A stretch of DNA of 64,000 bases from Candidatus Omnitrophota bacterium (GTDB lineage: Bacteria; Omnitrophota; Gorgyraeia; Gorgyraeales; Gorgyraeaceae). The number at the start of each line of letters is the position of its first letter. Within the stretch, counting starts at the first letter, position 1. The DNA lies in contig JAHJQM010000010.1 of the NCBI GenBank assembly GCA_018819285.1, forward strand, positions 10,930 through 74,929, in the 5' to 3' direction. The notes under the pieces are model-generated. The model did not search any database and was not told the origin of the DNA. It saw only the letters and a program-made list of their open reading frames with translations. Below are positions 35,042 through 55,288 of the stretch, in pieces. A program made the translations under genes and the position numbers.

Positions 35042-36250
35042 TTGACTGTTATGAAATTCAATACAATACCTGAAATTATTAAGGATCTGAGAAAAGGCAA
35101 GATGGTCATTGTTGTGGATGACGAAGACCGCGAAAACGAGGGAGACCTTGTTATTGCAGCCAGCTTTGCTACGCCTTCAGCGATTAATTTCATAATAAAG
35201 TATGCCAGGGGGCTTGTGTGCATGCCCATGGAAGGCGAAAGGCTCGATGAGCTTGGGCTGCATCCAATGTTTGAGGACAATCAGGATACGTTTAAGACTG
35301 CATGGGCTATCTCTGTGGATGCTAAAAAAAGGACGACTACAGGCATATCCGCTCATGACAGATCAGTTACTGTAAAGGACCTTATAAGCCCTAATACAAA
35401 ACCCGATGATCTTGCAAGGCCTGGCCATGTATTTCCTTTGCGGGCAAAAGATGGCGGAGTTTTAACACGAGCGGGCCATACAGAGGCATGCGTTGATTTA
35501 ATGAAGCTGGCAGGATTGTATCCTGCAGGGGTTATATGCGAGATAATAAATGATGACGGCACCATGGCCAGGCAGAAAGACCTGGCAAGATTTTCAAAAA
35601 AATATAAACTTAAAATATGCACGATTGCCAGTTTAATTAATTACAGGCGGAAATCAGAGAGGCTAGTGACTTGCATTGCCTCCAGCCAAATCCCTACAGA
35701 TTATGGGATTTTTAAATTATATCTTTATGAATCAAGTGTTGATAAATATCAGCATATAGCGCTTGTAAAAGGCGATGTGAAAGGAAAAAGAGATGTTTTA
35801 GTGCGCGTACATTCAGAATGCCTTACAGGCGATATATTTGGCTCTAGAAGATGCGATTGCGGGGAACAGCTTCGTAAGACTATGAAACTTATAGGAGAAA
35901 GACCAAGGGGCGTTCTTTTATATATGAGGCAGGAAGGCCGCGGCATAGGACTGGCGAATAAGATAAAGGCATATACGCTGCAGGATAAAGGCTTTGATAC
36001 AGTAGAGGCAAATGAACAGCTTGGTTTTAAGCCGGATTTGAGGGATTATGGCATAGGCGCTCAAATACTAGCAGACTTGGGATTGAAGACGATACAGCTT
36101 ATTACAAATAATCCGCGCAAGATAGTGGGTTTATCAGGTTATGGACTGGAGGTGGTAAAAAGGGTTCCTATGGAAGTGCAGCCTAATAGCGCTAATAAGA
36201 GGTATCTGGAAACCAAGAAGGAAAAATTAGGACATAAATTGAAATTTTAA
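35042..36250 (+). CDS. ribBA: bifunctional 3,4-dihydroxy-2-butanone-4-phosphate synthase / GTP cyclohydrolase II
   Basis: DHBP synthase N-terminal domain (…DRENEGDL…) plus GTP cyclohydrolase II with the CxxC…C zinc site ([15 protein letters not shown]). The start may instead be the ATG at 35051. Confidence 0.9.
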
Positions 36251-36327
36251 AAGGTCCCTCGCAGCCTGATGAAAAATAATGGCTGCTCGGGATCAAATTT
36301 TGTTTCACAAAATTTGGGAGGTGTAGC
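36250..36327 (+). promoter_or_regulatory. dual-hairpin 5' leader L2, copy 1 (GGTCCCTCGCAGCC…GGCTGCTCGGGATC; CAAATTTTGT-TTC-ACAAAATTTG; GGGAGG Shine-Dalgarno)
   Basis: Seen in sequence. Paralogous to 54184-54277 with compensatory base changes in both stems. Confidence 0.7.
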
Positions 36328-36792
36328 ATGTATAAAGTAATTCAGGGAGAACTTATTGCAAAGGGCAGGAAATTTGGTATCATAGCATCTAGATTCAATG
36401 ACTTTATTACCAACAGGCTGCTGGAAGGATGCGTTGATGAACTTGCAAGACATGGCGCGAAAGATAGCGATATGGAGGTTGTCTGGGCTCCTGGCGCATT
36501 TGAAATACCTGTTCTTGCTAATCATATGGCGAAGAGCAAAAAATATGATTCAATAATATGCCTAGGCACTATAATAAAAGGAGCAACGCCTCATTTTGAT
36601 TATATTGCAAGCGAGGCGTCAAAAGGCATTGCGAATATTTCTTTAAATACAGGCGTGCCTTTGATATTCGGAATAATTACAGCTGATTCAATAGAGCAGG
36701 CAATAGAAAGAGCAGGCACGAAACAGGGCAACAAAGGCCGTGACGCAGCCCGTTCAGCTATTGAAATGGCTAACCTGGTGGCGGAACTTTAA
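36328..36792 (+). CDS. ribH: 6,7-dimethyl-8-ribityllumazine synthase
   Basis: Full-length lumazine synthase match; 154 aa. Confidence 0.9.
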
Positions 36793-36793
36793 T

Positions 36794-37222
36794 ATGCGTA
36801 AACGCACTTTTGCAAGGGAATGCGCTTTAAAGATCCTTTATAGGATAGAGATTTCTAAAGAGTCTGTAGATTCTAGCTTTAAAGACTTCTGGTCAAAAGC
36901 GTCTGAGTCTATAAATAAGGAATCCCATGATTTTGCTGAAACGCTGGTAAAAGGCACATGCGAAAATATTAAGACAATAGATGAGACTATTTCAAAATAT
37001 ACGGATAATTGGGATATCTCCAGGATGGCTGTCATAGACAGGAACATTATGCGCATGTCTATATATGAGATGCTTTATAGAGATGATATACCGCCAAACG
37101 TTTCTATAAACGAGGCTATAGAGCTTGCCAAAAAATATGGGGATGTTGATTCTGGAAAGTTTGTAAATGGGATACTTGATAAAATAAAAAAAGTAGAATT
37201 AAAAGATAAATGGGCAAAGTAG
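36794..37222 (+). CDS. nusB: transcription antitermination factor NusB
   Basis: [16 protein letters not shown]… NusB family. The internal ATG at 36794 was chosen, just after the ribH stop. Confidence 0.85.
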
Positions 37223-53129: not shown

Positions 53130-54133
53130 TGAGTCAATTGCGAAGAGATCCAATAACAGGAAGATGGGTGGAGATAGCTGTCTCTCATCCAAAAAAATGT
53201 AATGAATTTGACATGAAACCGCAGACTAAGAAAGGCGGGACATGTCCTTTTTGTCCTGGAAACGAAAAGATGACGCCTCCTGAAATAGAGGCAGTTAGAG
53301 GCCTTAAGACAGAGCCTGATACCCCAGGCTGGACAGTCAGAGTTGTCTCTAATAAATTTCCTGCGTTGAAGATAGAAGGAGAGCTGGATAGGCGCGGCAT
53401 AGGTATGTTTGATATGTCAAACGGCATTGGCGCACACGAGGTAATAGTTGAAAATACAGATCATTATAAAAACCTGGCTGACCTGACGCAGGATGAGATA
53501 AGAGATGTGATATCAAAATATAAATCCAGGACCATAGATCTGGAAAATGATGCAAGGTTCAGATATATTTTACTTTTTAAAAATCACGGGGAATCTGCAG
53601 GCGCGTCGCTTGAGCATTCGCATACCCAGCTAGTAGCATTGCCTATTGTGCCTAAGAGGGTTAAGGAAGAATTAAAAGGCGCCCAGAATTATTTTAAATA
53701 CAGAGAGAGATGCGTTTTCTGCGATATGATAGCGCAGGAGCAGCAGGAAAAAGAGAGAATAGTGTTTGAAAATAAACATTTTCTAGCATTTTGCCCTTTC
53801 GTGTCTCGCTTTCCATTCGAGATATGGTTATTGCCAAAATCTCATAGCTCTGAATTTAAATCAATAGATGATTCTGCGATTTACGATATGGCAGGCGCAT
53901 TAAAAGAAGTCCTTGTGAGGTTGAAATTAAGACTTAATGACCCTGCGTATAATTTTATAATTCACACTGCGCCTATTAGAGACGGGGTTTATGAAGAATT
54001 CCATTGGCATCTTGAGATAATGCCCAAATTGACAAATGTAGCTGGTTTTGAATGGGGTTCAGGCCTCTATATAAATCCTTCCTCGCCTGAAATAACTGCT
54101 AAGTGCTTAAGAGAAACGTGCACAGCAAAGTAA
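53129..54133 (+). CDS. galT: galactose-1-phosphate uridylyltransferase-like protein (canonical H-S-H-T-Q active site)
   Basis: RDPITGRWVEIA, CPFCPGNE and SLEHSHTQL motifs; 334 aa. Confidence 0.75.
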   Translation: MSQLRRDPITGRWVEIAVSHPKKCNEFDMKPQTKKGGTCPFCPGNEKMTPPEIEAVRGLKTEPDTPGWTVRVVSNKFPALKIEGELDRRGIGMFDMSNGIGAHEVIVENTDHYKNLADLTQDEIRDVISKYKSRTIDLENDARFRYILLFKNHGESAGASLEHSHTQLVALPIVPKRVKEELKGAQNYFKYRERCVFCDMIAQEQQEKERIVFENKHFLAFCPFVSRFPFEIWLLPKSHSSEFKSIDDSAIYDMAGALKEVLVRLKLRLNDPAYNFIIHTAPIRDGVYEEFHWHLEIMPKLTNVAGFEWGSGLYINPSSPEITAKCLRETCTAK

Positions 54134-54183
54134 AATATAATTCACATTAAGAGTAGAGAAAATAAAATAGGTTAAACTGGAGT

Positions 54184-54277
54184 AAAGGTCCTTCGGCAGC
54201 TAAAATATTTGCTTCGCTCATATTTTTTAACGCTGCCTCAGGATCAAATTTGCTTCGCAAATTTGGGAGGAAACAAC
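54184..54277 (+). promoter_or_regulatory. dual-hairpin 5' leader L2, copy 2 (GGTCCTTCGGCAGC…GCTGCCTCAGGATC; CAAATTTGC-TTC-GCAAATTTG; GGGAGG Shine-Dalgarno)
   Basis: Seen in sequence upstream of gap. Confidence 0.7.
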
Positions 54278-55288
54278 ATGGGAGTAAAGGTTGGCATTAA
54301 TGGTTTTGGAAGAATAGGCAGGAATGTTTTCAGGGCAGCGATTGAGAACCGCAATATCGATTTTGTGGCAGTTAACGATTTACCAACGCCTACAACCACC
54401 CTTGCGCATCTTTTGAAATACGATTCTATACTGGGAGAATTAAAGGTAAACATTGAGGCAAAGGAAAATGCCTTGGTCGTAAACGGCAAAGAAATAAAGG
54501 TATTGAGCTATAAGGACCCCGCAGAGATTCCTTGGGCAAGCATGGGAGTCCAGATAGTGGTGGAATCTTCAGGCGTATTTACGGAAAAGGAAAAGGCGGT
54601 GAAGCATATTCAGGCAGGCGCAAAAAAGGTTATAATCACAGCCCCTGCGAAGAATGAAGACCTTACAATTGTTATGGGCGTTAATGAGAGGGTGTATGAC
54701 CCTTCAAAACACAGCGTAGTTTCAAACGCAAGCTGCACAACAAACTGTTTAGCGCCGGTTGCAAAGGTTTTGATAGAAAAGTTTGGAATAAAAAGAGGTT
54801 TAATGACCACGATTCATTCTTACACAAATGACCAGAGGATCCTTGACCTTGTGCATAAGGATTTAAGAAGGGCAAGGGCAGCCTGCCTTTCAATGATACC
54901 TACAACTACAGGCGCTGCAAAGGCAGTGAGCCTCGTGCTTCCTGAATTAAAGGGAAAATTAGACGGACTTGCAATAAGGGTCCCTACGCCGAACGTCTCT
55001 CTTGTTGACCTTGTAGTGGAAGTTGAAAAAGACACTACAAAAGAAGAAGTCAATATGGCGATGAAGGAAGCGGCAGAGGGAAAATTAAAAGGTATCCTTG
55101 AGTATTGCGATAAACCGCTTGTGTCAAAGGATTTTAATGGTAATCCGCATTCTTCAATAGTCGATGCGGCCCTTACTCATGTAATTGATAAGAGGATGGT
55201 AAAGGTGCTGAGCTGGTACGATAATGAGTGGGGGTATTCCTCCAGAGTGGTCGACCTTATAGAGTATATATTGAATAAGGGATTATAA
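54278..55288 (+). CDS. gap: glyceraldehyde-3-phosphate dehydrogenase (type I)
   Basis: [13 protein letters not shown]-binding motif and [10 protein letters not shown] catalytic Cys motif. The ATG at 54278 follows GGGAGG. Confidence 0.9.

Follow-up and report, generated by a model that had tools for sequence, protein, structure and literature searches.

What are the two similar double hairpins that stand immediately in front of ribH and of gap in a 64-kb stretch of DNA from a Candidatus Omnitrophota bacterium, and do they belong to these two genes? The stretch (assembly GCA_018819285.1, contig JAHJQM010000010.1, positions 10,930 to 74,929 of the forward strand; hereafter the window) had been given a first-pass annotation from its letters alone, which proposed a 5' untranslated region element shared by ribH and gap and took the paired changes between its two copies as the hallmark of a functional RNA structure. 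The recurring architecture is found upstream of both genes, as proposed. It belongs to a family that is strongly structured, present in many copies and placed exactly against Shine-Dalgarno (SD) sequences and tRNA ends; moreover, the element is dispensable at ribH and gap in close relatives and turns over between loci. On balance we lean towards the view that both sites are copies of a dispersed, structured repeat, similar to repetitive extragenic palindromes (REPs) or miniature inverted-repeat transposable elements (MITEs), which is mobile or recombines ectopically and is co-transcribed as an intercistronic or 5' hairpin module.

The two copies, read in the sequence and scored with a covariance model of the family, and the signals that they adjoin are the following (P1 to P3 are the helices in 5' to 3' order):

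36253..36317, forward strand: copy 1, type A (CUCGGGAUC), filling the ribBA-ribH spacer; P1 36254-36258/36289-36293, UC/UC loop 36259-60/36287-88, P2 36261-36266/36281-36286, P3 36294-36316; 76.1 bits
36316-36321 and 36328-36330, forward strand: SD (GGGAGG) and ATG of ribH
54187..54267, forward strand: copy 2, type B in its long form (CUCAGGAUC), 5' of gap; P1 54188-54192/54240-54244, UC/UC loop 54193-94/54238-39, P2a 54195-54200/54232-54237, P2b starting at 54202, P3 54245-54265; 75.4 bits
54265-54270 and 54278-54280, forward strand: SD (GGGAGG) and ATG of gap

The element and its family

Both copies (65 and 81 nt) have one architecture, in which P1 (5-6 bp), a UC/UC internal loop and a variable P2 are followed by an AU-rich P3 hairpin that ends at the SD, the last G of P3 being the first G of the SD. 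The ribH copy reads GGTCCCTC-GCAGCC-(14 nt)-GGCTGC-TC-GGGATC from 36253 to 36294 and CAAATTTTGT-TTC-ACAAAATTTG in P3 (36294-36316); the gap copy reads GGTCCTTC-GGCAGC-(31 nt including an inner helix)-GCTGCC-TC-AGGATC from 54187 to 54245 and CAAATTTGC-TTC-GCAAATTTG in P3 (54245-54265). The composite motif GGATCAAATTT..AAATTTGGGAGG occurs twice in the window and in none of 100 shuffles. Both copies fold as proposed (z of -3.1 and -3.2), the minimum free energy fold of the ribH copy being the proposed structure with the SD unpaired, and their reverse strands fold no worse than the forward strands. The paired differences between them are a sixth P1 pair that is C-G in one and U-A in the other and, in P3, one inserted U-A pair and one change from C-G to U-A. 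When the window was scanned with the covariance model the next-best match scored 12 bits, and a scan of the whole window with filters off returned only these two copies and a decayed one at about 9341-9447.

An exact-pattern scan of genome contigs, with one genome per species and a pattern that fixes the outer P3 stem and a terminal GG, gave at least 118 matching stretches; among the matches listed nearly all lie in metagenome-assembled genomes (MAGs) of Omnitrophota, a few of the host MAGs carrying the label 'uncultured Planctomycetia'. Copies are numerous within single MAGs, one of which holds at least 14 strict-pattern copies. An alignment of 72 copies (A1) served to build a covariance model (R1), which found 153 copies in 100 of the loci fetched for comparison (L-numbers below), including copies whose P3 is of wholly different yet pairing sequence. 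Where the first-pass annotation had only two copies to go by, pattern scan and covariance model together thus give more than 150 in Omnitrophota MAGs, and the condition that it had set for its refutation, a lack of any copies but these two, fails. The element measures 57-85 nt across the family. Its near-constant parts are the AA-(G)GUCCY/RGGAUC helix of P1 with a fixed G.U (G.T in DNA), the UC/UC loop and the terminal AU-rich P3, and AA is conserved on its 5' flank; P2 and its loop are free to vary provided that pairing holds. The sequence of the outer P3 stem (CAAAUUU/AAAUUUG) equals its reverse complement and reads alike in either orientation. P3 may carry UUCG or GAA loops, or be an altogether different stem, so that the TTC loop and the GGATCAAATTT junction, said to be constant, are so in the two window copies and in a subset of the family only.

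Compensatory change, claimed from two copies, is real between them and holds over the family of more than 150. In A1, from whose 72 copies the structure itself was written, pairing holds in 96.4% of cells, compared with 77.7% in shuffles, and covariation scores 0.505, compared with 0.155; none of 500 shuffles attained the observed value. The free observations behind these figures are the 5' arm of P1, the 5' UC, P2 and the inner P3, since the finding pattern had fixed the outer P3 and the GG. Pairing falls to 28-54% in controls with slid partners. At the sixth P1 position 36 of the 72 copies have U-A and 34 have C-G, the P2 pairs show four to six pair types each, and two inner P3 pairs covary. 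Conversely, the second P1 pair (G2.U62) is G.U in 70/72 copies and the UC/UC loop is kept in 70-72 of them. The helices are 97% Watson-Crick; leaving out the fixed G.U, there are 16 sense G.U and 10 A.C, roughly the same number. Wobble counts are uninformative beyond the single fixed G.U, and a claim of RNA selection on the sense strand only was set aside. Helices of this kind, without strand-specific wobble, fit hairpin DNA repeats as well as they fit RNA. Similarly, conserved mismatches in otherwise paired, variable stems are typical of hairpin DNA bound by recombinases or transposases, and are compatible with protein-bound RNA as well.

A scan of the window with Rfam 15 at gathering threshold returned the FMN riboswitch and one tRNA only, and the two copies searched at E<=10 gave matches at chance level. 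An overview paper on the Omnitrophota based its RNA analysis on Rfam only, and limited full-text searching of the literature on Omnitrophota motifs or repeats, and on REPs, RAYTs and tRNA, found no description of the element.

Some observations stand beside the family. Contigs begin or end inside a copy in L002, L023, L070, L079, L081 and L089; we considered these as RNA ends, but assembly breaks at a repeat explain them better. A related module ('type C') lies 5' of ribH in L149, L153, L157, L163 and L165, and also in L060 (1300-1415), L068 (6423-6508) and L088 (1709-1759); it consists of a P1-like helix (ATCCCTCG...CGGGATWAATTCG), another hairpin (ATAACTTAYG...CRTAAGTTAT) and then GYGCTCATTAAAAGGAGG, and ends at the SD.

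Placement and turnover

Of 150 aligned copies, 76 are in sense orientation with an SD and start codon directly downstream, 14 adjoin the first base of a co-oriented tRNA and 22 adjoin a tRNA 3' end on the opposite strand, their TGG overlapping the CCA, in addition to several beside tRNAs missed by ARAGORN; the remainder are mostly internal members of tandem arrays, or lie near tRNAs. In every case P3 ends where an A-rich spacer meets a (U)GG, which in practice means at the first G of the SD, at the first base of the tRNA or, antisense, at its CCA end; the abutment to tRNA +1 or CCA is within 0-2 nt. In L110 the closing pair of P3 is G-C and not C-G, and the tRNA starts immediately after it, indicating that the closing base belongs to the element. 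Copies antisense to tRNAs retain the UUC loop and the G.T of the element, and not those of the transcript. Inverted pairs, in which both P3 ends face the tRNA, bracket tRNAs for Gly and Leu (L110), Lys (L045) and Ala (L056). Arrays of 3-4 copies are also seen, L099 having four in tandem with a complete P3 only in the one proximal to the tRNA, and inverted pairs and arrays together occur in L110, L099, L021 and L056. The sole tRNA of the window (42601-42675) has no copy beside it.

The genes downstream span more than 100 Pfam families, in addition to the tRNAs. They are mostly housekeeping genes generally regarded as highly expressed, such as those for EF-Tu, DnaK, GroES, S7, S16, S19, L20, SSB, GlnA, enolase and thioredoxin; others encode GuaB3, P-II, GreA and MoxR ATPases. 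The stop codon of an upstream, co-oriented open reading frame (ORF) falls within -1 to 18 nt of the element start in 38/85 sense copies. Inspection of flanks shows a candidate -35/-10-like pair a few to about 15 nt 5' of several operon-first copies; for -10-like boxes, seen 5' of several such copies and of the gap copy, the distance ranges from a few nt to a few tens of nt. Because the promoter-like pairs sit 5' of the operon-first copies, we take the element to be a leader or intercistronic segment of RNA.

If the element were a fixed part of the ribH leader, relatives should keep it there. We surveyed 80 metagenome loci fetched by protein similarity, and therefore independently of the motif; a covariance-model match lies just 5' of ribH in 7/80, three of them weak (24.6-25.8 bits), and 73/80 are without the element, which excludes a strictly conserved ribH leader. 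The ribBA-ribH spacer is filled by the element in the window and in L128, L134, L138 and L139 (94%, 93%, 90% and 79% RibH identity to the window). It is precisely empty (...AAATTAAAAAAAA|GGGGGTG...ATG) in L135 and L137 (92% and 90%), holds a GTAG...CTAC palindrome in L127 and L133 (98% and 96%), and holds a 42-nt palindrome of a family also found in the window in L129 and L130 (both 94%). When filled and empty ribH sites are aligned (A6), no duplication is seen beyond a possible G/GG common to the element start and the SD. At gap, the window has a type B copy and L003 and L048 have type A copies with a different P2, and no element is present at orthologs with 92% and 84% identity; at 1440-1490 of L004-L006, 5' of a gap with 92% identity and no element, there are short tandem heptamers (ACGAATC/ACGAACG). 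The variable cores match copies at non-orthologous genes best. For the ribH copy the best match is not another ribH copy but one before tuf in another genome (96% identity), others reaching 75-82% or less; the core of the gap copy is closest to copies beside tRNAs and unrelated coding sequences (CDS), and the gap copy of L048 is closest to a dapA copy.

The genes and transcription signals around the two window copies are:

34795-34822, forward strand: sigma-70-type promoter of the rib operon leader, TTGACA-16-(TG)TATAAT, perfect
34826-34948, forward strand: FMN riboswitch (aptamer 100 bits)
34964-34986, forward strand: terminator-like hairpin with a T tract
35042-36250, forward strand: ribBA, with its stop at 36250; the ribH copy starts 3 nt after the stop
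36328-36792, forward strand: ribH, lumazine synthase (TIGR00114, E 5e-53), followed by nusB
54278-55288, forward strand: gap, type I GAPDH (E 7e-157), preceded by two galT-like genes

The rib operon runs ribBA-[element]-ribH-nusB-PHP-ribD-ribE. A consensus scan found no promoter-like site in the ribBA-ribH spacer and, given this and the perfect promoter and FMN riboswitch upstream, the ribH copy would be transcribed inside the operon. At gap a candidate promoter (TTCACA-16-TAAAAT, a consensus match only) ends at 54168, about 19 nt 5' of the element. The two copies are thus almost certainly transcribed together with their genes. The window corresponds to a metagenome contig (ENA ERZ27247117, k141_624214). 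Its GAPDH shares 97% identity with the enzyme of Omnitrophica bacterium GWA2_41_15, and where a source is named the best homologs are nearly all from Omnitrophota.

The window also holds a decayed copy and other repeats:

9318..9457, forward strand: decayed third copy, 5' of rpmF (L32, 9458-9658); what is left is a P2-like hairpin with the 3' half of P3 (GCTTCGCAAAATATGGAGG), P1 being lost; weak covariance-model match at 9341-9447 (8.4 bits)
about 9374-9431: nested hairpin (TCCCGCCCTTTTGGCGGG...CGCCAAAAGGGCGGG) in the P3 loop of the decayed copy
3585-3626, 8886-8927, 21854-21895, 28747-28788, 39152-39214, 50990-51031 and 57215-57256: sites of the 42-nt palindrome, also present in the ribBA-ribH spacer of L129/L130
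about 7772-7855, 21905-21985 and 52030-52102 (degenerate at 51038-61): a third repeated leader

The nested hairpin, about 50 nt long and GC-rich (TCCCGCCCTTT..GGCGG...CAAAAGGGCGGG), recurs at about 1925-1980 of L131, in the P3 loop of an intact ribH copy, with GCTTCG (6 nt) duplicated on its flanks (alignment A5); it looks like a loop-targeting mobile element. The 42-nt near-perfect palindrome (AAGTTGACACTCTGACATTGTCAGAGTGTCAACTT) forms a second repeat family, with eight copies in the window, at gene ends or just before the SD of the next gene. The third repeated leader consists of TAATTCCTTAGCYAAT, a variable hairpin and AAATTCAGWGGTGAYTATACAT just 5' of start codons; one copy precedes the first galT-like gene, and the window scan at gathering threshold assigned it to no Rfam family. 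The GTAG...CTAC palindromes of L127/L133 (for example GTAGGGCCAGCACATTGTGCTGGCCCTAC), about 30-60 nt 5' of the ribH ATG (position 2001 of the locus), are REP-like in the classical sense and belong to another family. The two galT-like genes are tandem paralogs (52086-53129 and 53129-54133, with stretches about 70% identical) directly 5' of gap, and a separate 102-nt tandem duplication lies at 2156-2359.

Repeat, processing signal or regulatory leader

The reading from which the first-pass annotation started, a gene-specific 5' untranslated region element common to ribH and gap (a regulator site or translational enhancer, and an internal regulatory site in the rib operon), now seems to us scarcely credible. 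Both copies do lie immediately 5' of a strong SD and differ by compensatory changes, but the element also precedes dozens of unrelated genes and tRNAs, is absent from most ribH loci and from several gap orthologs, and has no match in Rfam even at E<=10. A gene-specific leader or riboswitch is likewise rejected on the number of downstream families and on the ribH survey. The structure and its covariation hold, but they do not mark a functional RNA peculiar to ribH and gap, the same element being found at about 75 unrelated CDS and at tRNAs in both orientations. Nothing points to a binding site for a regulator, and although the rib operon may have an internal site of processing or initiation, the data do not imply one. 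Nor does a signal at the DNA level, an internal promoter or an intrinsic terminator or attenuator ahead of highly expressed genes, account well for the element; we hold it to be very improbable. TAAAAT/TATAAT-like strings are seen on inspection in type B copies, the A-rich 5' flank makes the reverse strand a hairpin with a U-rich tail, and copies do lie behind tRNA 3' ends. Against this, consensus scans found no promoter- or terminator-like site in either window copy, the TAAAAT strings make up one side of a helix that covaries (AAAUGC/GCAUUU, AUAAUCC/GGAUUAU), the sequence after P1/P2 is AAAUUU and that after P3 is GGAGG, with no U tract in either place, and the predicted promoters of operon-first copies lie 5' of the element, which places the whole of it in the transcript. 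Other candidates were discarded as well: an intrinsic terminator, in view of the lack of a GC-rich hairpin with a U tract at either copy, where AAAUUU or GGAGG follows the stems; and, on inspection, anti-SD pairing of the CCCUC arm with GGGAGG (the registers mismatch), a hammerhead core (the CUGAUGA of the ribH loop is not conserved in other copies), a boxA-like UUUAAC in type B (the string forms one side of an internal loop and recurs in antisense copies), mimicry of the 16S 3' end (the likeness stops at GGAUCA), base pairing between the type B loop and the T-loop of tRNA (no more than 5 bp) and a tRNA-like minihelix (layer count and loop are unsuited in the long forms).

It is the choice between a dispersed repeat and a signal selected by the host that has to be weighed with care. 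Gain and loss among close relatives, tandem arrays, inverted pairs, nested insertions and relatedness across non-orthologous sites are the behaviour of a REP- or MITE-like repeat, and it is on these that our preference rests. Such a repeat may have spread by a hairpin-specific mechanism or by ectopic conversion, and its conserved mismatches may be recognition features for a hairpin-specific protein, be it a transposase, a recombinase or a nuclease. Once in mRNA, P1/P2 could cap the upstream cistron and P3 could protect and insulate the downstream ribosome-binding site (RBS) while leaving the SD free, so that the module would favour the expression of highly expressed genes such as ribH and gap; the module may in this way affect mRNA stability, processing or translation. 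Insertion between an A-rich tract and (T)GG is a simple, unifying alternative that would give SDs, tRNA 5' ends and CCA ends on the opposite strand alike; by itself, however, it leaves the zero-nucleotide register with tRNAs unexplained. Several observations weigh against a passive repeat. The copies adjacent to CDS are all in sense orientation and at a spacing appropriate to the SD (76/76; 85 with a looser filter), and the same genes carry a copy in different genomes (S19, SSB, DnaK, tuf, glnA, dapA, gap and ribH), which resembles selection for a host function rather than passive insertion, while the exact abutment to both tRNA ends suggests a role in processing. Moreover, neither a transposase (no systematic search for which was made), nor terminal inverted repeats, nor a target-site duplication (TSD) of more than 1-2 nt was found (A6), and the locus maps, again without a systematic search, show no evident candidate for a transposase ORF between inverted copies. 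The sequence of P1 and P3 is conserved across the phylum, over G+C values of about 38-57% taken from MAG names and from the matches, which is atypical of selfish MITEs or REPs. Such repeats are usually species- or genus-specific. Finally, the pattern by which most copies were found has a fixed outer P3 and terminal GG, and this skews the contexts to neighbours starting with GG.

A host function therefore stays under consideration: copies at CDS are without exception in sense orientation, the same highly expressed genes carry them in different genomes, and the sequence is conserved throughout the phylum. Possibly, the element is a punctuation signal in RNA, selected by the host, and recognized by an endonuclease (RNase E/G-, RNase III-, RNase P/Z-like or dedicated) whose cleavage site is the P3 base or the point where P1 meets P3; such cuts would separate cistrons, create mRNA 5' ends proximal to the SD and help to mature both tRNA ends, and the signal would have spread by duplication and gene conversion and not by transposition. 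We consider this unlikely; in its favour are strict sense orientation and SD spacing at the 76 CDS, abutment to tRNA +1 and CCA, an element that often occupies the entire intercistronic spacer, the bias towards housekeeping genes, the phylum-wide conservation of P1, UC/UC loop and G.U, and recurrence at the same genes in different genomes. In E. coli RNase E cuts AU-rich sequence just 3' of the CCA in tRNA precursors, and the self-complementary outer P3 stem offers the same AU-rich signal in either orientation. The punctuation signal is opposed by the precise empty sites, or unrelated palindromes, at ribH in relatives with 90-98% identity, which imply that it would be dispensable, and also by tandem arrays whose internal copies have a truncated P3, by the nested insertion, by cores related across non-orthologous loci, by the near absence of G.U beyond the fixed one and by the antisense copies at tRNAs that keep the UUC loop and the G.T of the element and not those of the transcript. 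A stronger form, which we regard as quite improbable, is a phylum-specific system in which one hairpin-guided endonuclease cuts the self-complementary base of P3 in either orientation and so sets SD-proximal mRNA 5' ends as well as both tRNA ends, a counterpart to mitochondrial tRNA punctuation that may lessen the dependence of ultra-small cells on RNase P and RNase E; the repeat would then spread as new copies confer processing on their neighbours.

The family is useful in several respects. The Omnitrophota are uncultured nanobacteria and, to our knowledge, almost nothing is known of their gene expression. Many highly expressed cistrons and tRNAs have the element at their 5' boundary, and it can thereby improve the annotation of start sites and operons in MAGs; as a repeat it explains recurrent assembly breaks and bears on the fragmentation of Omnitrophota MAGs. 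Orthologous sites with and without the element are a natural experiment on the effect that a hairpin directly abutting an SD has on expression. Should targeted insertion be the cause of this exact placement, one would suspect an undescribed hairpin-specific activity in transposition or recombination; should selection be the cause, an undescribed general signal for RNA processing. In either event, two copies with clean compensatory changes are not enough to establish that an RNA is a gene-specific regulator.

Comparison with known systems

Known short repeats share part of these properties. REPs are single palindromes of 20-40 bp with an unpaired GTAG or CGTC tag, found mainly downstream of genes (PMC3733652). 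The element resembles REPs, BIMEs and REPINs as described there in being a short, multi-copy, extragenic hairpin with variable sequence, kept pairing and conserved mismatches, in occurring as singles, inverted dimers and clusters, and in being co-transcribed, REPs having been proposed to stabilize mRNA (PMC3733652). Many extragenic copies, with inverted dimers and clusters, are indeed found (the MAG with 14 or more; L110, L099, L021 and L056). The element differs in that it has two separate hairpins and an internal loop over 57-85 nt, ends in 5' AA(G)GUCCY and 3' AAAUUUG with CGTC only inside some apical loops of type B, and lies directly 5' of an SD and start codon in about half of its copies, whereas REPs lie mainly downstream of genes or between convergent ones. 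Unlike that of REPs, its sequence is conserved across the phylum; no RAYT was found, although none was sought.

MITEs such as the Correia/NEMIS elements of Neisseria, ERIC/IRU of enterobacteria and BOX/RUP of pneumococci are small, non-autonomous, gene-adjacent repeats transcribed as structured RNA, which can alter the stability, processing or expression of their neighbours and are polymorphic for presence and absence among strains; they have terminal inverted repeats and TSDs (e.g., TA) and no fixed register with the RBS. The element shows the same polymorphism at orthologous sites and the relatedness of copies across loci, but its ends (GGTCC... and ...AAATTTG) are not mutual inverted repeats, the inverted repeats being the internal stems, and it stands in exact register with the SD or the tRNA end. 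MIRUs (Supply et al. 1997) are reportedly repeats between the cistrons of operons, all pointing the same way and in register with the stop and start signals on either side; they are tandem units of 46-101 bp with small ORFs that overlap the flanking stop and start codons. The element, too, occupies intercistronic spacers in one orientation and in register with flanking signals; MIRUs, however, are not conserved double hairpins and are not linked to tRNAs. The ends of IS200/IS605 and PATEs are imperfect hairpins recognized as folded single-stranded DNA, with orientation-specific insertion and neither TSDs nor terminal inverted repeats, as here, and highly transcribed DNA would be an accessible target; we take this as a lead only, since the element has no conserved tetranucleotide target beyond the AA on its left flank, and no TnpA was found in loci that were not screened for Y1 transposases. 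Processing sites and stabilizers such as the RNase III sites of phage T7 and the leader stem-loops of ompA and of B. subtilis gapA are locus-specific, not dispersed, and not antisense at tRNA ends; what the element shares with them is an irregular hairpin with an internal loop, between cistrons and ahead of the free SD of a stronger downstream gene. With integron attC sites the likeness is one of general logic only (a conserved base, an unpaired spacer and a variable top); on inspection the A1 copies have no GTTRRRY/RYYYAAC ends, and the neighbours are core housekeeping genes and tRNAs, so that attC was discarded.

The element is thus a bacterial interspersed hairpin repeat, whose closest kinds are REP/BIME/REPIN and co-transcribed MITEs and which is distinguished from them by its fixed register with RBSs and tRNA ends and by its phylum-wide conservation. 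Because it departs from REPs in size, end tag and location and from MITEs in its ends, matches nothing in Rfam 15 and is not described in the literature covered by our limited searching, we class it as a new variety of interspersed hairpin repeat.

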